From a virus (taxonomy: Duplodnaviria > Caudoviricetes), in the IMG/VR virus record IMGVR_UViG_3300020045_005633, positions 1-28,267 of that record: a DNA stretch of 28,267 nt. The stretch is one strand, 5' to 3'. Position 1 is the stretch's first letter, and each line of letters opens with the position of its first letter. The notes beneath the pieces were generated by a model that was not told the origin of the DNA, searched no databases, and saw nothing but the letters and a program-made list of their open reading frames with translations. The position numbers were made by a program, and so were the translations under genes. Of this stretch, positions 5,086 through 22,264 are shown piece after piece.

Positions 5086-6782
5086 AACGATTGAGCGGGT
5101 AAATTGTCGGTAAAGGATATGCCAAATTCTAAGTTAAAAAGTTTCTCCCTCTGCTGTAGGTAAACAAAGGACCCGCCATCCACGATAACCGTTCGTCTGC
5201 TTTCCCTGCTGTCCACAATCTGCACCAATGGCGAGGTCCTTATTCTATACAAGTCGCTTACCTGTTCTTCTGTAAGATTCTCACATCGCACCGTTACCAC
5301 TTGGCGGCTTATCCGTTGCGTCTGTTGGTTGATGGTGTCCGCTCCAAGACCGTAGGATTTAGGCCAATTCGTGAAAATGTTTTTCTTAACTGACTTTGTG
5401 CCCTCGATCGAAACGCCATAATCGGAATCTGATTTAAATACTTTATAATCAAAACCTCCTAAATGGTTTAGCCATGTGAAATTCAGCATATTACCGGAAC
5501 AATCGGTATTTACTTTGATTGACTTCGTTTCTGAAATAGGTATCCATGAACTGTAATCATAGTATTCCAAAGTAATATAAATTTCGTCCTCTAGATAAAT
5601 GCTTTGGTCTAGTTCATAGCGATAAATTCCAATACCGTAATCGTCAATTAAGTCTATATATTGCGCCACGATAACGCCATTAACCAGACATTCACGCCTG
5701 ATTCGTAACAATGCACCAATCTGATTAACAAAGGATATATCGAAGAACTGGCCAGGGGTTAATTCAGGATATAACGAAGGGGTAAGAAACTTTAACTTGG
5801 TAGCTGATGAGCCATATATGTAATCCGAAAGATAGCCGGAATGAAGGTTTTTAAAAGGTAGTTCCGCATTGACGGCATATCCGGTAAAATTACTTGAATC
5901 GTCCGTATAACTACCTACATAATCCATCAAAGTATAACCACCCGTAGAATAGTCGTAACCTTCTGCATACGTGATATAGAACTGACAAAAGGAATCTAGG
6001 TTATTCTGAAGCGTTCCCTTTAAAAGATCGTTTTTAAGAATATCTATTTTTTCCTTTAGAAACTCGTTTACGTTCAACGTGCAAATACCGTCTGAATCCG
6101 GAATGACTCTTTGCTCTGTGATTAGTTCATAGGGCTTCTGACTTGTAAAGTAATGGGAAGCTGACAGGCCCGCGTAAAGCCGAATGCGTGCATGATAGTT
6201 GTTATAATAGTATTGAACAGACGTGAACGTTAACCCACCAACATAGGCGAGGTTTATAGTGACTATTGATGTGGAATACCATGCGATAACCTGATATACC
6301 GTGGAGGTTCCGCCAGTAAACGTAACCTTAACAAATTCCAGTTCTGAGACCCCCGCGTTAAGCTCACCCGAACATGTCAGTTTCACATACCCGTTATCAT
6401 TGGCATAACTCGAAACCGTGCGCACCGTGTCTACCGAGTTAGTAGGCCATGCGGTAGACTGCAATTTAAACACGATGGGAAGGTGAACGCAGTTCCATGC
6501 ATGCGTACTAACAAAGTAAAGCGTAACAGCATTAGTCCTAATAAATGGAATTGGTAATCCGTCTAAGTCTAAGACTTGAATCTGAACAGAATTATAAGCG
6601 CCTACTTTAAAAAAACCGTTGTATTCTGAAATATCTGATTCTATATAAAAAGCGTCTCCTGTTATTAAATTATGAGATACGTTTGTCTGAATTTGATAAT
6701 AACCAACATAATTATATGAATATCCAGGAATTGAAGATCCTAATATATACCCCTGTGGCCGTTGTACTACTGATAGTGCCAT
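5082..6782 (-). CDS. Putative tail structural protein
   Basis: 566 aa; the WLNHLGGFDY segment resembles W.N..GG.D motifs I recall from Bacteroidota phage tail proteins; operon context. Confidence 0.55.
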   Translation of the reverse strand: MALSVVQRPQGYILGSSIPGYSYNYVGYYQIQTNVSHNLITGDAFYIESDISEYNGFFKVGAYNSVQIQVLDLDGLPIPFIRTNAVTLYFVSTHAWNCVHLPIVFKLQSTAWPTNSVDTVRTVSSYANDNGYVKLTCSGELNAGVSELEFVKVTFTGGTSTVYQVIAWYSTSIVTINLAYVGGLTFTSVQYYYNNYHARIRLYAGLSASHYFTSQKPYELITEQRVIPDSDGICTLNVNEFLKEKIDILKNDLLKGTLQNNLDSFCQFYITYAEGYDYSTGGYTLMDYVGSYTDDSSNFTGYAVNAELPFKNLHSGYLSDYIYGSSATKLKFLTPSLYPELTPGQFFDISFVNQIGALLRIRRECLVNGVIVAQYIDLIDDYGIGIYRYELDQSIYLEDEIYITLEYYDYSSWIPISETKSIKVNTDCSGNMLNFTWLNHLGGFDYKVFKSDSDYGVSIEGTKSVKKNIFTNWPKSYGLGADTINQQTQRISRQVVTVRCENLTEEQVSDLYRIRTSPLVQIVDSRESRRTVIVDGGSFVYLQQREKLFNLEFGISFTDNLPAQSL

Positions 6783-10176: not shown

Positions 10177-10208
10177 CAAAACTAAACATTTAGTTAATCT
10201 TTTGCAAA
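10177..10208 (-). promoter_or_regulatory. Bacteroidota sigma70-type promoter for the terminase/structural operon
   Basis: TTTG (10208-10205), 20-nt spacer, TAGTTTTG (10184-10177). Confidence 0.7.
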
Positions 10209-10521: not shown

Positions 10522-10664
10522 CTCGGTAATCCAAAAGTTAAAACATAACCATAATTCACATCCAAATCCAACATGACATAGTATCCAGCGTCATCTAACA
10601 TACCATAAGTTTTTACGGCCTGTGGATCAAATCCAAATGACATAGATTTTCTAAATGGTTTCAT
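10518..10664 (-). CDS. Hypothetical 48-aa protein
   Basis: Hand translation MKPFRKSMSFGFDPQAVKTYGMLDDAGYYVMLDLDVNYGYVLTFGLPR; ATGA overlaps at both ends. Confidence 0.55.
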   Translation of the reverse strand: MKPFRKSMSFGFDPQAVKTYGMLDDAGYYVMLDLDVNYGYVLTFGLPR

Positions 10665-10792
10665 TCCTTGTATTTACTTGCCTTCTTCAGCGTCTTAACA
10701 ATCCAGGAATTTACGTTAGGTTTCGCCACCCTCTTAAGATGATCTTTAAGCCCCTTCTTGGTCTTACAGGTTATTACTTCGGTGTTTATCAT
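10661..10792 (-). CDS. Ribbon-helix-helix (Arc/CopG-like) DNA-binding protein, 43 aa
   Basis: Hand translation MINTEVITCKTKKGLKDHLKRVAKPNVNSWIVKTLKKASKYKE: alternating beta strand then two amphipathic helices; A-rich start context. Confidence 0.55.
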   Translation of the reverse strand: MINTEVITCKTKKGLKDHLKRVAKPNVNSWIVKTLKKASKYKE

Positions 10793-11010
10793 GGTTTTTT
10801 TGTTTCAATTAAAAGTGGGTCTTTCCCCACCTGTCACTATTGTACTGCCTTCTGGTTATTGTTTAACCGCGTTCATACCATGCAGTTTAGCTCCGAACAT
10901 TCTCATAGTAGCCTTAGTTACGGAACGGGTCTAATTACGCATACTCGTTTGGTATAGGGTCGATTTTACGTGCACCCCGAATATGTTTCAGCCACAGCAC
11001 CGTTGCGGGT

Positions 11011-11031
11011 GTAATACTATAAAGGTATTAC
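11011..11031. promoter_or_regulatory. Inverted repeat, candidate operator
   Basis: GTAATAC-N7-GTATTAC. It overlaps a minus-strand TACCTTTA -7-like element, and the half-site recurs at 11103-11109. Confidence 0.55.
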
Positions 11032-11083
11032 CAATTATCCAAATATTCAGGCTAAAATTATTTTGAAATATTTTTCTTAAAAG

Positions 11084-11114
11084 TTTGGAAATATCATAGG
11101 GGGTATTACCTTTG
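11084..11114 (+). promoter_or_regulatory. Consensus Bacteroidota promoter for the early operon
   Basis: TTTG (11084-11087), 19-nt spacer, TACCTTTG (11107-11114); AT-rich upstream region. Confidence 0.85.
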
Positions 11115-11163
11115 AATCATCAAACAATAACAAAAATGGCACACATCAATAAAAAATAAACAC

Positions 11164-11586: not shown

Positions 11587-11826
11587 ATGAGAAGATGCAA
11601 AGTTATTTTAAATAAGAATGATTCTTTTTTTGATCAAAAAGATTTCATTGAAGGTAAAGTGTTATTGGAAGATATGGAAGATATGGAAGATATGGAAGAT
11701 GGGTTCAGTAGATTTCAATTTGAATCAGATAATGACATTGATATTTTTAACGAAAAAACTTCCTGCTGGACTGATAGAAGTGATTATAAATTTCTTTTTC
11801 ATCAACCAAAAATAACATATTTATGA
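11587..11826 (+). CDS. Hypothetical acidic early protein with an EDM repeat
   Basis: Tightly packed; ATGA overlap with the next ORF. Confidence 0.6.
   Translation: MRRCKVILNKNDSFFDQKDFIEGKVLLEDMEDMEDMEDGFSRFQFESDNDIDIFNEKTSCWTDRSDYKFLFHQPKITYL
11666..11700 (+). repeat. 9-bp tandem repeat TGGAAGATA, about 3.9 copies
   Basis: Read directly from the sequence; encodes EDMEDMEDMED. Confidence 0.95.
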
Positions 11827-15734: not shown

Positions 15735-15823
15735 GCATCCTATCCATCGTCCTGATCACCTGGTTAGCCTCCTGTTTTACTATTACTCTTTGTTGGTTAC
15801 TTATTAAACGATTCTGGAAATGA
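15731..15823 (+). CDS. 30-aa single-TM peptide
   Basis: Hand translation MSILSIVLITWLASCFTITLCWLLIKRFWK; exactly fills the gap with ATGA overlaps at both ends. Confidence 0.55.
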   Translation: MSILSIVLITWLASCFTITLCWLLIKRFWK

Positions 15824-16458
15824 AGGTGTTGAACCTTTATGCTTGTCTTGGAGGCAATCGATACAAATGGACAGACTGTGAAGTAACAGCTGTTGAGCTT
15901 GACCCCGAACTGGCAAGGCTTTACAAAGAACGATTCCCAAATGATAATGTAATTGTCGGGGATGCTCACCAATACCTTTTAGACCATTACAAAGAGTTTG
16001 ATTTTATTTGGACTTCTCCACCATGCCCAACTCATAGCAAAATGAGGTTAGTTAATACCGGTGATGGTGAAAGAAAGAAATCTGCATCATTCCCTGATTT
16101 AAAACTTTATGAGGAAATAATTTTTCTCGATAATTTTTTTGATGGAAAATATTGTGTTGAAAATGTTATACCATACTATGAGCCTTTGATTCAGGCACAA
16201 AAAAGGGGAAGGCATCTATACTGGACAAATTTTAAATTACCGAATGATTTAGGCGATAGAAGAGCTGATAATTTTATTTATTCAAAACAATCAGATTTAG
16301 AAAGATTCCATAGGATAGATTTAAGCACATATAAAGGAGAACAGAGAACCGATAAGATCGCAAGAAACCTTGTAGACTATGAGGCTGGCCTAACCATTTT
16401 CAATGTTGCGCGGGGTATATACAATAATAAAACCACTCAACAAACACTATTCAAATGA
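15820..16458 (+). CDS. Compact C5 cytosine DNA methyltransferase
   Basis: Motif I LYACLGG, motif IV SPPC, motif VI ENV. Confidence 0.88.
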   Translation: MKVLNLYACLGGNRYKWTDCEVTAVELDPELARLYKERFPNDNVIVGDAHQYLLDHYKEFDFIWTSPPCPTHSKMRLVNTGDGERKKSASFPDLKLYEEIIFLDNFFDGKYCVENVIPYYEPLIQAQKRGRHLYWTNFKLPNDLGDRRADNFIYSKQSDLERFHRIDLSTYKGEQRTDKIARNLVDYEAGLTIFNVARGIYNNKTTQQTLFK

Positions 16459-16814: not shown

Positions 16815-16996
16815 TTTCGAAAACAAAGAGAAGCAAGGTTTTTGAGAAAAGTCAATGGCGTTGCGTTAAATGTGGCCGTGAGGTACGGTTGACCATAGAC
16901 CACAGAATCCCAAAGTCAAAAGGAGGTACTGATAATTTAAGCAACCTTCAGTCCATGTGTGATCCTTGTAATCAGGAAAAAGCGGATAAACTTTGA
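16811..16996 (+). CDS. Minimal HNH endonuclease, 61 aa
   Basis: CVKC...LTIDHRIPKSKGG...NLQSMCDPCN. Confidence 0.88.
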   Translation: MISKTKRSKVFEKSQWRCVKCGREVRLTIDHRIPKSKGGTDNLSNLQSMCDPCNQEKADKL

Positions 16997-17021
16997 ATTT
17001 ATTAAATGATCGCTATATTTG
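16992..17021 (+). promoter_or_regulatory. Bacteroidota promoter
   Basis: TTTG (16992-16995), 18-nt spacer, TATATTTG (17014-17021). Confidence 0.75.
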
Positions 17022-17025
17022 TATG

Positions 17026-17114
17026 TGCTTTTCGTGGAAGCAATTAAAAACATTTTCCGTCCTATGTAGGGGGAGAGCCACGAACTCGAACCCGACATAG
17101 GACATTTTATTTTT
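17026..17114 (+). ncRNA. Structured 5' leader A (kissing-loop hairpin pair)
   Basis: UGCUU[UUCGUGG]AAGCA, linker, then GUCCUAUGU-A-GGG-GGA-GAG[CCACGAA]CUC-GAA-CCC-G-ACAUAGGAC, U-rich tract, AUG at 17115. Confidence 0.75.
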
Positions 17115-19301
17115 ATGGAGTACGAAGAGTTTTTACAAACAAAGATCAGGAAGTATAAAGATTCAGGATTTGAGACTGATGATTTAAATCCTAATCTATT
17201 CGACTTTCAAAATTTTATAGTCAAACGAGCATTAAAAGCAGGCCGTTACGCATTGTTTTGTGAATGTGGAACCGGTAAAACAATTATGCAATTATCGTGG
17301 GCGGATGCGATTGTAAAGAGAACCGGTAAGCCTGTAATTATTCTTTGCCCTTTGGCGGTAAGCGGTCAAACTATATCGGAGGGATTAAAGTTTGGCATAG
17401 AAGTACAACGATTAAAGTCAGATGTATTTGGTCCGGGGATCTTTATTACCAATTATGAACAACTTGAAAACGTAGATGTAGAACCCTTCATTGGAGTTGT
17501 ACTTGATGAGAGTTCCATCCTTAAGAACTTCACAGGGGTATATAAAAATCTAATCTTAGAGAAATTTAAATATACTCCTTACAAATTACCATGCACAGCT
17601 ACGCCTTCACCTAACGATCTTAATGAGATCGGAAACCACTCGGAATTTTTAAACATATTAGACGCTCAAGATATGCGCTCTAAGTGGTTTGTAAGGGATG
17701 AAGGAATGAACAACTATCGATTAAAATCACACGCTAAAGTTGATTTTTACGCATGGATTTCTTCATGGGCCTGTATGCTTTCTAATCCTTCCGATCTTGG
17801 ATTTGATGGCAGTAATTTTATTTTACCTCCATTGAATTACATTGAAAAGCAAATTAAAACTAATGTAAGAAGTAATTATAAGCTATTCAATGACGCTTCC
17901 ATAAACGCTACTAATTTCAATAGCGAATTACGATTAACTAAGATTGAAAGACTATCGGAGGTTATTGATATTGTTAACTCATCTACTGATAACTTTATAA
18001 TATGGGTTAAACAAAATGAAGAAGCTGACTATTTAATGAAACTTATTCCTGACGCGGTGGAGGTTCGTGGGAATGATAATCCGGTATTGAAGGAAAAGAA
18101 CCTATTAGGATTTGCAAAAAATGAATTTAGAGTTTTAATTACAAAAGCTAAGATTGCTCAATTCGGACTTAATTATCAGAACTGCCACAATCAGATATTT
18201 GCCTCTTTGGATTTCAGCTTTGAAGGATTATATCAGGCCATTAGAAGATCCTACCGATTCGGACAGAAACAACAAGTAAACATTTACATGATAACCACCG
18301 ACACCATGCAAAACGTGATTAACTCAATTAAAGAAAAAGAGCGCAAATTTATTGAGATGCAAGATGAAATGAATCGTAACATTAATAGCAAACAGTACGG
18401 TCTTTTAAATACATACGATTACAAAGAAGTTAAGACTGAAAACTATTTCTTAATGAAGGGAGACACCTGCAAAGAGATTAAAAGAATCCCTGATAACAGC
18501 GTTGATTTGATTATATTTTCTCCTCCTTTCAGTTCGTTGTTTACCTATTCAAACTACATCCATGACATGGGTAATAATGAAAACCACGGAGAGTTTTTTA
18601 AGCAATATGCATTTCTTTTAAAAGACCTTTACAGGATATTAAAGCCTGGTCGTTTGATGTGTTGTCATACAAAAGACTTAGGAGTTTATAAGAACTCAAG
18701 CGGTTACACCGGAATGTATGATTTTACGAGCGATCACACAAGGTCGGTATTAGCTGAAAATTTCAAACTACATTCAAAGATTACAATTTGGACCGATCCG
18801 GTACTTGAGATGCAACGCACTAAAACGCAAAGATTACTTTATAAAACAGTTACAAGCGACTCCACATTTACCGGAATAGGGATGGCTGAATATGTTACCA
18901 TTTTTAGGAAGTGGGAAGGAGATCAGGAAAACTGGGAACCGGTTACTAACCTTACAAAACAGAACTTCCCTTTGGACACATGGCAAAAGTGGGCCTCGCC
19001 TGTCTGGATGGACATAAGAAGGACTGATGTTTTAAACGGTCATGAGGGTACTGACATGGGAGATGAGAAACACATTGCACCACTTCAATTAGAAGTCATT
19101 CACAGGCTTGTTAACCTGTATTCTAATCGTGGTGAGGTTGTATTCACTCCTTTCTTAGGCATTGGCTCCGAGGCTTACCAGGCTATTAAAGATGAACGTA
19201 AGGCGATAGGGTGCGAATTGAAAGATAGTTACTTTGATGTAGCGGTTAAGAATTGCAATAATGCCACGGCCGCCAAAGCTCAGATTAAGATGTTTGTTTA
19301 A
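17115..19301 (+). CDS. SF2 (SNF2-like) helicase fused to a beta-class N4-C/N6-A DNA methyltransferase
   Basis: Helicase motifs CGTGKT, LDESS, TATP and QAIRRSYRFGQ; MTase motif IV FSPPF precedes motif I TPFLGIGS. Confidence 0.9.
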   Translation: MEYEEFLQTKIRKYKDSGFETDDLNPNLFDFQNFIVKRALKAGRYALFCECGTGKTIMQLSWADAIVKRTGKPVIILCPLAVSGQTISEGLKFGIEVQRLKSDVFGPGIFITNYEQLENVDVEPFIGVVLDESSILKNFTGVYKNLILEKFKYTPYKLPCTATPSPNDLNEIGNHSEFLNILDAQDMRSKWFVRDEGMNNYRLKSHAKVDFYAWISSWACMLSNPSDLGFDGSNFILPPLNYIEKQIKTNVRSNYKLFNDASINATNFNSELRLTKIERLSEVIDIVNSSTDNFIIWVKQNEEADYLMKLIPDAVEVRGNDNPVLKEKNLLGFAKNEFRVLITKAKIAQFGLNYQNCHNQIFASLDFSFEGLYQAIRRSYRFGQKQQVNIYMITTDTMQNVINSIKEKERKFIEMQDEMNRNINSKQYGLLNTYDYKEVKTENYFLMKGDTCKEIKRIPDNSVDLIIFSPPFSSLFTYSNYIHDMGNNENHGEFFKQYAFLLKDLYRILKPGRLMCCHTKDLGVYKNSSGYTGMYDFTSDHTRSVLAENFKLHSKITIWTDPVLEMQRTKTQRLLYKTVTSDSTFTGIGMAEYVTIFRKWEGDQENWEPVTNLTKQNFPLDTWQKWASPVWMDIRRTDVLNGHEGTDMGDEKHIAPLQLEVIHRLVNLYSNRGEVVFTPFLGIGSEAYQAIKDERKAIGCELKDSYFDVAVKNCNNATAAKAQIKMFV

Positions 19302-19353
19302 AAAAAAATTTGCTTAAAAGTGTGGAATTTCCTCTACAAATCTCATGTATAAT

Positions 19354-19384
19354 TTTGTACTCATATGTGAATTATGTAACATTG
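19354..19384 (+). promoter_or_regulatory. Bacteroidota promoter for the replication operon
   Basis: TTTG (19354-19357), 19-nt spacer, TAACATTG (19377-19384, one mismatch). Confidence 0.65.
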
Positions 19385-19399
19385 CATACCAAATTAAAA

Positions 19400-19485
19400 G
19401 ACTATGTGCGTAGTCATTCAAAACATTTTTAGCCTTGAAGGGCCGAACCGCGCACACGGGGAGGTTCTTCAGGGCTTTTTTATTT
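19400..19485 (+). ncRNA. Structured 5' leader B (kissing-loop hairpin pair)
   Basis: GACUA[UGUGCG]UAGUC, linker, then AGCCUUGAAG-GGCC-GAA-CCG[CGCACA]CGG-GGA-GGUU-CUUCAGGGCU, U tract, AUG at 19486. Confidence 0.75.
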
Positions 19486-20100
19486 ATGGAAATATCAGAT
19501 AGTATTTGTAGTGCAATTTACAGAAGTTGTATTAGGGTAGTTGATTCAGTTATTTTAAATAGCCCAGAAATGAAAGCTATTGCCTATCATGAATTTGACA
19601 ATTTTATTTGGAGGCTTAATTCAAAAATAGGTAAGGTTCAATATTATTTAAATAATGAAACTAATGATAGCCCAAAAGTAGTTCGATCAAATGGTACTAA
19701 TTTTACTTTTGAATTTACTATTTATCCTGATAAAACAAGTGAATTTAGGGTTTCATTAAGAACTACATCATACAGAAAATTTGACTCATCATATCTGCTA
19801 TCTAAAGCTAAAGTTAATAAGGGGTATGTTTATTTTATAAAATCAGAATTTGGCTATAAGATTGGTTGTACAAATAACATAGCTAAGCGATTAAAGATTT
19901 TCGAAGTAAAACTTCCTTTTAAGGTTAATTTAGAATCATATATTGAATCTAAAGACCATAATAAACTTGAATCAATGTTACACAATCTTTTATCACATAA
20001 AAGAATTGATGGAGAGTGGTTTGATTTAACCGAAAATGATTTTAGTGAAATAGATTTAGTGATAAAAAATATGGGGTTAATCAGATTACAAAATGGCTAA
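19486..20100 (+). CDS. T5orf172 / GIY-YIG-like domain protein
   Basis: GYVYFI...YKIGCT...KRL...LE..LH...GEWF. Start placed at ATG 19486, after the leader hairpin. Confidence 0.85.
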   Translation: MEISDSICSAIYRSCIRVVDSVILNSPEMKAIAYHEFDNFIWRLNSKIGKVQYYLNNETNDSPKVVRSNGTNFTFEFTIYPDKTSEFRVSLRTTSYRKFDSSYLLSKAKVNKGYVYFIKSEFGYKIGCTNNIAKRLKIFEVKLPFKVNLESYIESKDHNKLESMLHNLLSHKRIDGEWFDLTENDFSEIDLVIKNMGLIRLQNG

Positions 20101-20755
20101 AGAACTACCCTACTTTAAGTTCAACGCCTCGGAATGGATCAGTGGAGCGATTACACTTGAAGATATGACAACTCAAGGCGCATTCATAAATATCTGTGCA
20201 TACTATTGGTTCAAATCGGGATCGTTAACATTAACCGAAATCAAGCGAAGGCTTAAATTAAAACAAGCGACCATTGATTCTTTAACCCATGGAAATCATA
20301 TAAAAGTTGATCAAGATGTCATTGAAATTTCATTTTTGAATGAGCAATTTGATGAACTCGGACATATTTCTAAGAAAAATTCATTAAACGGAAGTAAGGG
20401 AGGTGCCCCAAAAGGTAATAAAAACGCACAAAAAAACAACCCAAAACAACCCAAAACAACCAATATAGAAGAAGAAGTAGAAGAGAATAGAAAAAGAGAA
20501 GAAAGAAAAGTTTTTGTTTATGGTAAGCATGATGAAGATAAATACATTCTAATTACCCCAAATACAATCGATGGTCTATTGTATAGAATTAATGGTGAGG
20601 ACGGATTTAAAGAATTGTATGATATTAAGCAGTCAAAAATATCTCACCCTAATCTTGTTAAGGACTTTCTTAGATCATATCCCGGAAAACACTTTGATGA
20701 TTTTCGCCATGTATATAACACATTTAATCAATTCATTGAAAAAAAGTATAACTAA
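20093..20755 (+). CDS. Putative replication initiator (YdaU/DUF1376-like N-terminus)
   Basis: LPYFKF...W...TQGAFINIC.YYW N-terminus, NGSKGG linker, internal DNA repeats, upstream of a DnaB-like helicase. Confidence 0.72.
   Translation: MAKELPYFKFNASEWISGAITLEDMTTQGAFINICAYYWFKSGSLTLTEIKRRLKLKQATIDSLTHGNHIKVDQDVIEISFLNEQFDELGHISKKNSLNGSKGGAPKGNKNAQKNNPKQPKTTNIEEEVEENRKREERKVFVYGKHDEDKYILITPNTIDGLLYRINGEDGFKELYDIKQSKISHPNLVKDFLRSYPGKHFDDFRHVYNTFNQFIEKKYN
20433..20461 (+). repeat. 10-bp direct repeat AAAACAACCC, about 2.9 copies (candidate iterons)
   Basis: Read directly from the sequence; followed by a purine-rich tract to about 20510. Confidence 0.75.
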
Positions 20756-21093
20756 TGGATAAAGTCATAATTCACAAGGTCACAACCCGCCCAAACTACC
20801 TGAAAGACCATAACCTCAAATATCTTGAGTTTAAGGCACTTTGTCCTAACCGACTAGGAAAACTACGGGAAATCATAGAAAGTCTGCCTGAGGGCAAGCA
20901 AAGGGCCACAGCGACCGAAATTATCACATGGTTACATGAATCCTTTACGGAAGTGCTAAAAGACTATGACGGATTGCAGGAAGGGAGCGAACTTAGAAAC
21001 ACGCTTGAAGATGCTATTCAATGGATACAGGCAAAGGATCGTGAGATCGCTATTTATGAGAATTTGTTAAAACAAAAGGTAAAAACGAAATGA
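20755..21093 (+). CDS. Hypothetical protein
   Basis: TAATG-coupled ORF in the replication operon. Confidence 0.7.
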   Translation: MDKVIIHKVTTRPNYLKDHNLKYLEFKALCPNRLGKLREIIESLPEGKQRATATEIITWLHESFTEVLKDYDGLQEGSELRNTLEDAIQWIQAKDREIAIYENLLKQKVKTK

Positions 21094-21326
21094 AAGACTT
21101 AGACAAAGAGATTAAAAAGGCAGGATTCACTTACATACAGGTATTTGCCGATACTTCGTGGTATATCTACTCCCAACACCTTAACGGGCAAGAAGTGGGC
21201 TATATTGTGTTTAGGCGTAAGGAAAATTCAAAATTCAACTGTGTTTCGTTTCCGGGTGATAATGCCTTTGGTTTGTGGGCGTGGCAGACATGGAGTTTTG
21301 AACTGGCTAAATCACATATCAAATGA
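21090..21326 (+). CDS. Hypothetical protein
   Basis: ATGA-coupled ORF. Confidence 0.7.
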   Translation: MKDLDKEIKKAGFTYIQVFADTSWYIYSQHLNGQEVGYIVFRRKENSKFNCVSFPGDNAFGLWAWQTWSFELAKSHIK

Positions 21327-22264
21327 TCTCAGCAGAAGAAGCCCTGAAAAAGATTGCGGAACGTTACGACAACGAAACCCACTACTTCGCCCAACCGGAA
21401 GAATGGCAGGCGGAAATCAAAACAGGGCTTAAATTTGAGGTTCACAAGTACGGTCACCGAAAGGTTGACGAACATATGCCCTACGTACAGGGTGAACTAA
21501 CTTTGGCCGTTGGCGCTACCAACGTTGGGAAAACTTACGTAATTCTGTACTTGCTTTCAAAGATGCTAGACCGTAAGAAGTTGATTGTTTATTCTGCTGA
21601 AAACCGTATTTCCACGCTTGCCAGGTATTTGATTCAATTCTTTTGGAATACGAACGATCATAAAACGATACTCACAAAAATGGATTGGCTTGCTGACCAT
21701 GTAGAATTTATTAGACATGAAAAGAAGTTTACCCATATTGAAATACTTACCCAATTCATTAAGGGTCAACACAGGGGGTTTGATGCTGATATGATGTTTA
21801 TTGACCCTTACAACGCCCTACAAGTAAAAGGAGGGCATGAAGGTCATTACGATGCAATTCAGGATTTCAGAATATTTACTCAGCAAACAGGCAAAAGCAT
21901 CTTTCTAAACTGCCATACGATGAGCGAAAGCCAACGGCAGAAATTAGACAAGTCAGGGGCAACAAACCCTCCAATGATGGCCGATGTTGAAGGAGGCGCA
22001 AAGTTCCCTAACAGTGCTGACACGGTAATTGTGGTTCACAGAAACCTTTACCACATGGATGAGGACGAAAGATATTGCACGCTTCTTTACGTTGGCAAAA
22101 TAAGGAACAGGGAGGCTGGAGGTAAACCGACAAGATTTGATGAGCCGATAAGATTAAAGTTTAAAAAGGATTGGACCGGATTCACTAACGATCATGATGA
22201 TATTGCGAGTAATTACAGATTGATTAATAATCATGCCACGCTGATTGATGACGATCCTTTTTAG
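21323..22264 (+). CDS. DnaB-like (SF4) replicative helicase, C-terminal ATPase domain
   Basis: Walker A GATNVGKT, YSAEN, Walker B MFIDPYN, ADTVIVVHR and KIRN motifs. Confidence 0.85.
   Translation: MISAEEALKKIAERYDNETHYFAQPEEWQAEIKTGLKFEVHKYGHRKVDEHMPYVQGELTLAVGATNVGKTYVILYLLSKMLDRKKLIVYSAENRISTLARYLIQFFWNTNDHKTILTKMDWLADHVEFIRHEKKFTHIEILTQFIKGQHRGFDADMMFIDPYNALQVKGGHEGHYDAIQDFRIFTQQTGKSIFLNCHTMSESQRQKLDKSGATNPPMMADVEGGAKFPNSADTVIVVHRNLYHMDEDERYCTLLYVGKIRNREAGGKPTRFDEPIRLKFKKDWTGFTNDHDDIASNYRLINNHATLIDDDPF

Follow-up and report, generated by a model that had tools for sequence, protein, structure and literature searches.

How does a phage of the Bacteroidota set the output of genes that are preceded by two RNA leaders of the same build and different letters? 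The question is raised by the 28,267-base phage record IMGVR_UViG_3300020045_005633 (IMG/VR; Duplodnaviria; Caudoviricetes), analysed here in its entirety as the window. In 28 of 30 cases, relatives of its largest early gene lie in Bacteroidota genomes. One leader (A) precedes a helicase-methylase gene and the other (B) a nuclease-like gene. Each consists of a 5' hairpin (P1, with loop L1), a linker, a long hairpin (P2) whose apical loop (L2) is complementary to L1, and a U-rich tract that runs to the start codon. Sequence comparisons indicate that this kissing-loop leader is a widespread, uncatalogued leader RNA of Bacteroidota phages; its mechanism is one that we infer.

Two leaders with one anatomy

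A first-pass annotation had proposed that both leaders follow a Bacteroidota promoter and share six parts, namely a 5-bp hairpin, an identical linker sequence, a long hairpin with a 3x3 purine internal loop, a 3-bp apical stem, an apical loop complementary to the first loop and a U-rich tract. All six are present in both leaders (Table 1), with the caveat that the energy model closes P1 deeper into its loop through G-U pairs. The loops differ between A and B while their pairing is kept, and they do not cross-match, as had been claimed: the loop-loop duplexes are calculated at -8.8 and -7.6 kcal/mol, and the A/B cross pairs at -3.1 and -2.6 kcal/mol. The folding z-scores are -2.7 for leader A, whose minus strand folds about as well as its plus strand, and -5.0 for leader B. 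A descriptor of the arrangement (a 5-bp hairpin with a 6-7-nt loop whose exact complement lies 30-60 nt downstream within the loop of another hairpin) matched exactly 2 sites on the two strands of the window. It had no match in 60 local dinucleotide shuffles, and both counts were the same whether or not the 3x3 rule was applied. This descriptor was modelled on the finding itself, and the out-of-sample tests (loop-blind test, model recovery and patterns free of loop letters) weigh more.

Bacteroidota promoters have a reported consensus with 4-5 nt between the -7 box and the transcription start (PMC6847099). This consensus and distance place the start of leader A at the first base of P1. A scan of the plus strand for the bipartite promoter gave three matches (11084, 16992 and 19354). 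The match at 11084 heads the early block and has no leader, and the other two directly precede leaders A and B. The promoter claim thus stands for both leaders as a predicted match; for leader B it is ambiguous between two boxes, since the one that lies 15 nt before P1 (TAACATTG) has one mismatch and the perfect box is further up. Consensus scans of the window for sigma-70 promoters and terminators picked up neither leader, the promoters being of another type and the apical parts of the stems interrupted or small.

Table 1. Positions of the leader parts and of the genes behind them in the window
Feature	Position	Strand	Basis
Leader A, predicted Bacteroidota promoter: TTTG 16992-16995, 18-nt spacer, -7 box TATATTTG 17014-17021	16992..17021	+	bipartite match
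Leader A, predicted transcription start	17026-17027	+	consensus spacing from PMC6847099
Leader A, hairpin P1: 5 bp (17026-17030/17038-17042), loop L1 17031-17037	17026..17042	+	
Leader A, linker: 16 nt, AAAAC motif, decamer AAAACATTTT at 17047-17056	17043..17058	+	
Leader A, hairpin P2: -21.7 kcal/mol, predicted terminator stem	17059..17103	+	
Leader A, inside P2: internal loop GGA 17072-17074/GAA 17088-17090, 3-bp apical stem, loop L2 17078-17084 complementary to L1			
Leader A, U-rich tract: 6 U in first 8, runs to start codon (ATG 17115)	17104..17114	+	
Leader B, predicted promoter region, two alternatives	19350..19384	+	
Leader B, promoter option: perfect -7 box TAATTTTG	19350-19357		
Leader B, promoter option: TTTG 19354-19357 with one-mismatch -7 box TAACATTG 19377-19384			
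Leader B, hairpin P1: 5 bp (19400-19404/19411-19415), loop L1 19405-19410	19400..19415	+	
Leader B, linker: 16 nt, AAAAC motif, decamer AAAACATTTT at 19420-19429	19416..19431	+	
Leader B, hairpin P2: -26.1 kcal/mol, predicted terminator stem	19432..19475	+	
Leader B, inside P2: internal loop GAA 19445-19447/GGA 19460-19462, 3-bp apical stem, loop L2 19451-19456 complementary to L1			
Leader B, U-rich tract: 7 U in first 8, then ATG 19486	19476..19485	+	
Helicase-DNA methyltransferase fusion gene, 728 aa, first behind leader A	17115..19301	+	Pfam Helicase_C, N6_N4_Mtase; PHROGs helicase, methyltransferase
MUG113/T5orf172-domain gene, 204 aa, nuclease-like, first behind leader B	19486..20100	+	Pfam
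Replication block, overlapping open reading frames: primosomal-type protein 20093-20755, two small frames, DnaB-like helicase 21323-22264	20093..22264	+	

The leaders belong to a family

The comparisons support a real, conserved cis-type RNA class of Bacteroidota phages in which the loop-loop pairing covaries, as the first-pass annotation had suggested. We collected 42 non-redundant members (sequences more than 90% alike removed), which carry 41 distinct loop codes of 6-10 bases. The loci taken for methylase relatives were 76 viral and 30 genomic ones; of the 105 orthologues with a usable start, 16 have a leader directly before the gene, identified by eye and differing in its letters, and many methylase loci bear a second leader directly 3' of the gene. 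Selection by promoter box, hairpin, terminator-like hairpin and open reading frame (ORF), blind to the loops, gave 59 distinct candidates in the window and 129 loci. Their own loops pair over at least 6 bases in 27 of the 59, against 113 of 3422 cross pairs, and over at least 7 bases in 23, against 32 of 3422. Several of the 32 candidates without own-loop pairing are members whose loop was misplaced by the fold; others are unrelated. A repeat in one marine metagenome assembly (L313, L324, L325, L330, L333, L334 and L336) also matches the loop-blind pattern, has neither promoter box nor kiss, and is unrelated.

When 11 members are aligned by sequence only, pairing reaches 85% for the named structure, compared with 64% in shuffles, and 88% for the loop-loop helix; these percentages are not a probability, since the rows were chosen as kissing members and are related. 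Two-sided changes occur at 5 of the 7 loop-loop pairs, which is the covariation in homologues that the earlier proposal predicted. A covariance model of these 11 members, trained without leader B and without the loop pairing, gave 20 matches in 96 sources; nine of them, including leader B (E 0.009), lie outside the training set. The model found two new members, L071 and L072, and the loops are complementary in both. Patterns without loop letters returned 41 distinct viral and 25 distinct metagenomic matches, mostly by chance. Where a promoter box and a stable hairpin were present (-18 kcal/mol or better in viral and -16 kcal/mol or better in metagenomic sequences), a kiss was scored in 6/7 viral and 9/10 metagenomic matches, several of the metagenomic ones being repeats of known members; with weak hairpins it was scored in 0/24. 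A U-rich tract follows the kissing matches although it was outside the search pattern.

The leader has a fixed place between the -7 box and the start codon. P1 lies 0-21 nt from a -7-like box in all 42 members (a box within 32 nt was a filter), and 40 of them end 10-32 nt before an ORF of varied kind, the other two having no close ORF of 50 codons. The cultured Flavobacterium phage FCV-1 (KY979235, L249) carries two members, at 35875-35981 and 40365-40456, which are unannotated in its record; the second precedes a NUMOD4-HNH gene, and just these two were detected in its 46 kb. The contig of another member, L221, is labelled Saccharibacteria. Its layout is near-identical to that of the viral L030 and its promoter boxes are of the Bacteroidota type, and it is likely a mis-binned phage contig.

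Other searches added little. The covariance model found no member among the 28 candidates scored per genome in 150 further genomes of G001's phylum. A promoter-linker pattern was near its control in 5 host genomes and gave mostly chance matches on viral contigs, with one doubtful match among 120 loci; a stricter GGGGG-type pattern had 0 matches. The single locus with a relative of the leader-B protein showed no leader, and blastn of leader A against cultured phages returned 2 chance matches only.

Conserved features, subtypes and downstream genes

The type found in the window, with a long P2 stem, comprises 33 of the 42 members. Its linker has a median of 17 nt and its P2 arm a median of 20 nt, and the stem ends 10-13 nt before the AUG in 27/33. 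Two details common to leaders A and B do not extend to most of the family. The identical linker decamer, in full AAAACAUUUU, occurs in 4/33, and it is AAAC that is conserved in the linker (26/33); the exact 3x3 internal loop is likewise found in 4/33, the conserved feature being a GA-rich internal loop. In 8/33 an AGUA/GAA version, the loop-E motif, stands in this place. The second type (9/42) has a short P2 and a linker with a median of 35 nt, resembles ordinary terminators and has a looser stem-to-AUG spacing of 11-27 nt. The L1-to-L2 distance is alike in both types, 38-54 nt with long and 42-61 nt with short stems.

The downstream genes that match known families encode helicase-methylases, MUG113 and HNH nucleases, an O-like initiator, a primase-type protein and small DnaJ-domain proteins. 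Helicase-methylases are over-counted here because loci were fetched via that gene, and 16 of 29 other downstream proteins had no Pfam match at E 0.01.

Some loci depart from the common plan. L199, L201, L326 and L337 have an additional GAAA-tetraloop hairpin at the predicted 5' end, between the -7 box and P1. L326 combines an L337-like P1 with an L201-like P2 and is likely a recombinant or an intermediate. Variants without a clear P1 occur at L070 (~6250-6360), L015:6255, L023:6474, L061:5936, L066:3031 and L199:629 (minus); in these, 6-14 bases of the 5' end pair with the terminator-like hairpin, in its loop and upper stem, the match in L070 being 14 bases. These variants possibly form a wider superfamily with the kissing-loop leaders.

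Comparison with known systems

The view that the leader belongs to no named family agrees with our searches. Rfam 15 covariance models matched nothing in the window (E<=5) and nothing in 18 further loci (E<=1); in 16 loci, searched at the gathering score, a tRNA was the sole match. Searches of the open literature brought up no account of the kissing-loop leader family; the supplement of PMC5737381, a 224-motif screen, and the alignment files of PMC10690425 were outside this comparison and could hold part of the family. The main texts of PMC11109978 and PMC8632094 contain no occurrence of Bacteroid, Flavobacter, phage or kissing. The tables of PMC10690425 (Fremin et al. 2023) list unnamed candidates ahead of NUMOD4/HNH and T5orf172 genes. 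One of them, DNAVirus_1203, is 96 nt long, comes from aquatic phages and lies before NUMOD4/HNH genes in 4 of 18 sequences. Compared with our leaders by its table entry, it differs in being listed as a non-terminator with 1 covarying pair and an unassigned host.

The first-pass annotation had named HK022 put RNAs and the IncI repZ pseudoknot as precedents, and the guanidine-IV riboswitch (GGAM-1/mepA) proves closer in architecture. In guanidine-IV, kissing with the terminator loop is reported to give read-through, and the kissed state has been proposed to strain or exclude the outer terminator pairs (PMC7736828, PMC11611296). As in our leaders, the loop of a 5' hairpin pairs with the loop of the terminator hairpin, with a linker between them and a U tract and gene behind. 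However, the guanidine-IV loops hold near-invariant ligand-binding bases, whereas the phage leaders have 41 codes in 42 members and no invariant loop base; and its genes export guanidine, whereas the leaders precede helicase-methylase, nuclease, replication and unassigned genes. Judged from sequence, the leader is built like guanidine-IV in layout and falls outside that class by conserved pocket and gene context.

HK022 put is also a phage, promoter-proximal, two-hairpin nascent RNA, which is reported to act on termination without a phage protein (PMC9378689). It differs in that put binds polymerase, suppresses pausing and termination of early genes and is itself no terminator, whereas P2 of the leader is followed by a U tract and the two hairpins, 16 nt apart, are paired through their loops. 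The zipper-type attenuator cATT of pLS20 is, like the leader, an attenuator on a mobile element with a 5' segment complementary to the terminator region, and the passages describing it mention no ligand (PMC13401043). Its pairing extends a long stem into the terminator within a 456 nt leader (PMC13401043). In the leaders of ~90 nt, by contrast, pairing is confined to the loops (42 members; at most 2 nt beyond the scored helix), and the P1-less variants come closer to cATT. Antisense attenuators and the IncI repZ pseudoknot use loop-loop recognition ahead of replication genes. They differ from the leaders, which have no sign of a counter-transcript promoter (consensus scan), of a leader peptide or of a Shine-Dalgarno sequence to free.

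Proposed mechanism

We propose that the leaders are promoter-proximal attenuators in which polymerase is more likely to pass a predicted terminator when the loops are paired, a reading to which we give about an even chance. Transcription would start at or just before P1, which would fold first. L2 would emerge from the polymerase ~40 nt later and would pair with L1 while the lower part of the P2 stem is still incomplete. Tethered to the base of the stem by the short linker, the kissed loops would then hinder closure of the base in the polymerase exit channel; transcripts missing the kiss would end within the U tract, a few nucleotides upstream of the AUG. Methylase, nuclease and replication genes would likely be expressed at a fixed or slowly adjusted dose. 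Since complementarity is all that the loops need, they are not expected to form a metabolite pocket. With the base of P2 lying over positions -11 and beyond relative to the start codon, this switch would have an effect on translation initiation as well.

A stable hairpin and a U-rich tract between the promoter and the first gene, the hallmark of attenuators with intrinsic terminators, are present, the promoter and tract being predicted. Among methylase orthologues, the 10 nt preceding the AUG contain 6.6 U and 2.5 A where there is a leader (12 distinct) and 2.3 U and 5.0 A where there is none (69 distinct); A at -3 alone shows no significant difference (4/12 with and 40/69 without a leader, p 0.13). 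Adenines before the start codon are reported to favour initiation in Bacteroidota (PMC6847099). The U tract travels with the leader although adenines would favour initiation, and a terminator tail is therefore its most fitting interpretation. When transcripts of increasing length are folded with nested pairs, the L1-L2 helix has the lowest energy of all states immediately before P2 is complete, in leader A as in leader B. By eye, 10-14 nt of the 5' end pair across the upper P2 stem in L015, L023 and L070 and must compete with P2. The proposal is set on the read-through side because the layout is that of guanidine-IV, whose kissed state gives read-through.

Several observations weigh against this proposal. 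By a rough worm-like-chain estimate, the kiss can coexist with a P2 that is closed throughout: the stretch would cost 1-9 kcal/mol and fray 0-2 base pairs in the leaders of the window, at least 3 base pairs would fray in 4/33 long-stem members and only at the stiffest setting, and the 9 short-stem members would be unstrained. Linker length does not track helix length (Spearman 0.06). The tract starts with A in 9/33 long-stem members, which is not ideal for a terminator, and the tight stem-to-AUG spacing fits translational control too. In L326:1150-1251 (minus), the kiss has one mismatch and one G-U pair. Finally, all but the 16 methylase orthologues mentioned above are without a leader, so the leader is dispensable for that gene. 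Two narrower versions of the idea were set aside. Linker tension as the sole cause of antitermination is weakly supported, the linker being just long enough for the kiss and a closed stem. A topological trap, in which the kiss blocks zipping of the two-turn stem, was dropped on reasoning, as the kissed block can swivel.

Alternative readings and the loop code

The linker of 16-18 nt that just suffices to span the closed structure would also suit a kiss that does not oppose termination and locks a short terminated RNA into a compact, stable fold. This RNA, or else a protein binding or opening it, would then do the work, whether as a small RNA, as a decoy or as a feedback signal to nascent leaders with the same loop code. 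The retention of AAAC and the GA-rich internal loop while the stems change, as for tertiary docking, is in line with such an RNA, and a free leader could engage a second copy through both of its loops. The two members without a close ORF fit as well, as do the same-locus codes, which differ in all 16 ordered pairs. However, the other 40 members lie before varied ORFs, pointing to cis action; the codes of the window have no second target of longer complementarity, bare 6-7-mer matches aside; and the same-locus orthogonality equals chance expectation. We consider this reading unlikely, if serious. If P2 were instead an inefficient terminator, the leader could be a translational switch or an mRNA 5' stabiliser in which the kiss gates ribosome access to the start codon just behind the stem, with an outcome like that of the IncI repZ pseudoknot. 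The stem-to-AUG spacing, the long interrupted stems and the A-first tracts, atypical of terminators, speak for it. Structure at -20 to +20 is reported to lower initiation in F. johnsoniae, where -12 and -13 matter (PMC6847099). Yet it is only in genes with a leader that U displaces the favoured A ahead of the AUG, the short-stem members look like ordinary terminators with variable spacing, and no alternative fold pairs the start region in leaders A and B, so that we regard a translational switch as rather improbable.

In antisense-controlled attenuators like those of pT181 or IncI, a separate counter-transcript would bring what the complementary loop of the leader already supplies in cis. Such systems typically use loop-loop recognition in front of replication genes, but a reverse -7 box lies within 200 nt downstream in 8/42 members, against 15% of random places, and we consider an antisense partner very unlikely. 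The coming and going of leaders before the same gene would also fit a DNA-level element without RNA function, either a site of the recombination or cassette kind or an inverted repeat maintained through template switching, a process that could copy one loop from the other. Against this stand the fixed orientation behind a promoter box, the U tract on one side only, and the G-U pairs and GA-rich loops, which work on one strand; an element of this kind is hardly to be expected.

The first-pass annotation had also read the loop sequences as an orthogonal specificity code. None of the 16 ordered same-locus pairs cross-pairs, but 0.5 would be expected from the background (52/1722, 3.0%), and the comparison has no power. 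Orthogonality of the loop code may be a by-product of drift. Close relatives showed, by eye, no faster change of loops than of stems: the loop pairs changed are 3/7 in L059/L060, 1/8 in L030/L221 and 0 in L013/L014, L050/L228 and L035/L207. Diversifying selection on the loop code left no sign by eye in these close pairs. A bolder scheme, which we hold to be doubtful, is a self-addressed switch free of protein and ligand. An early self-kiss would give a burst of read-through, accumulated leader loops would later capture transcripts of the same code and turn the cassette off, and the 6-8-nt code would insulate cassettes from one another. If this were true, one RNA would be sensor, signal and terminator, and a freshly infected cell would receive a burst of methylase, nuclease or replication protein.

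Implications

The defining helix of the leader conserves almost no sequence, and motif screens led by sequence likely miss the family for this reason. The leader is a candidate for the means by which Bacteroidota phages, in hosts that do not read Shine-Dalgarno sequences, dose methylase, nuclease and replication genes, and it would serve as a test of whether polymerase control by a kissing loop on a terminator is possible in the absence of a ligand. The 41 natural loop codes on one 90-nt scaffold would be a ready set of parts for gene control in Bacteroidota, and FCV-1 provides a cultured phage with two copies.

Other features of the window

The record encodes a terminase, an amidase, a YqaJ recombinase, two methylases and a DnaB-like helicase (Pfam). 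The MUG113/T5orf172 gene behind leader B presumably has a family link to GIY-YIG. The replication block that follows likely shares leader B with this gene, co-transcription being suggested by the overlap of the frames. The two methylases are a C5-type fragment match (15820-16458) and the helicase fused to an N6/N4 methylase behind leader A; two small HNH-like or unassigned ORFs sit between them. The divergent gene blocks are separated by a 640-base gap (10522-11163), which holds no leader of the kissing-loop family; promoter matches lie at 11084 (+) and, close by, at 10208 (-). At 11587-11826 lies a small ORF in which a 9-base tandem repeat encodes EDM three times.

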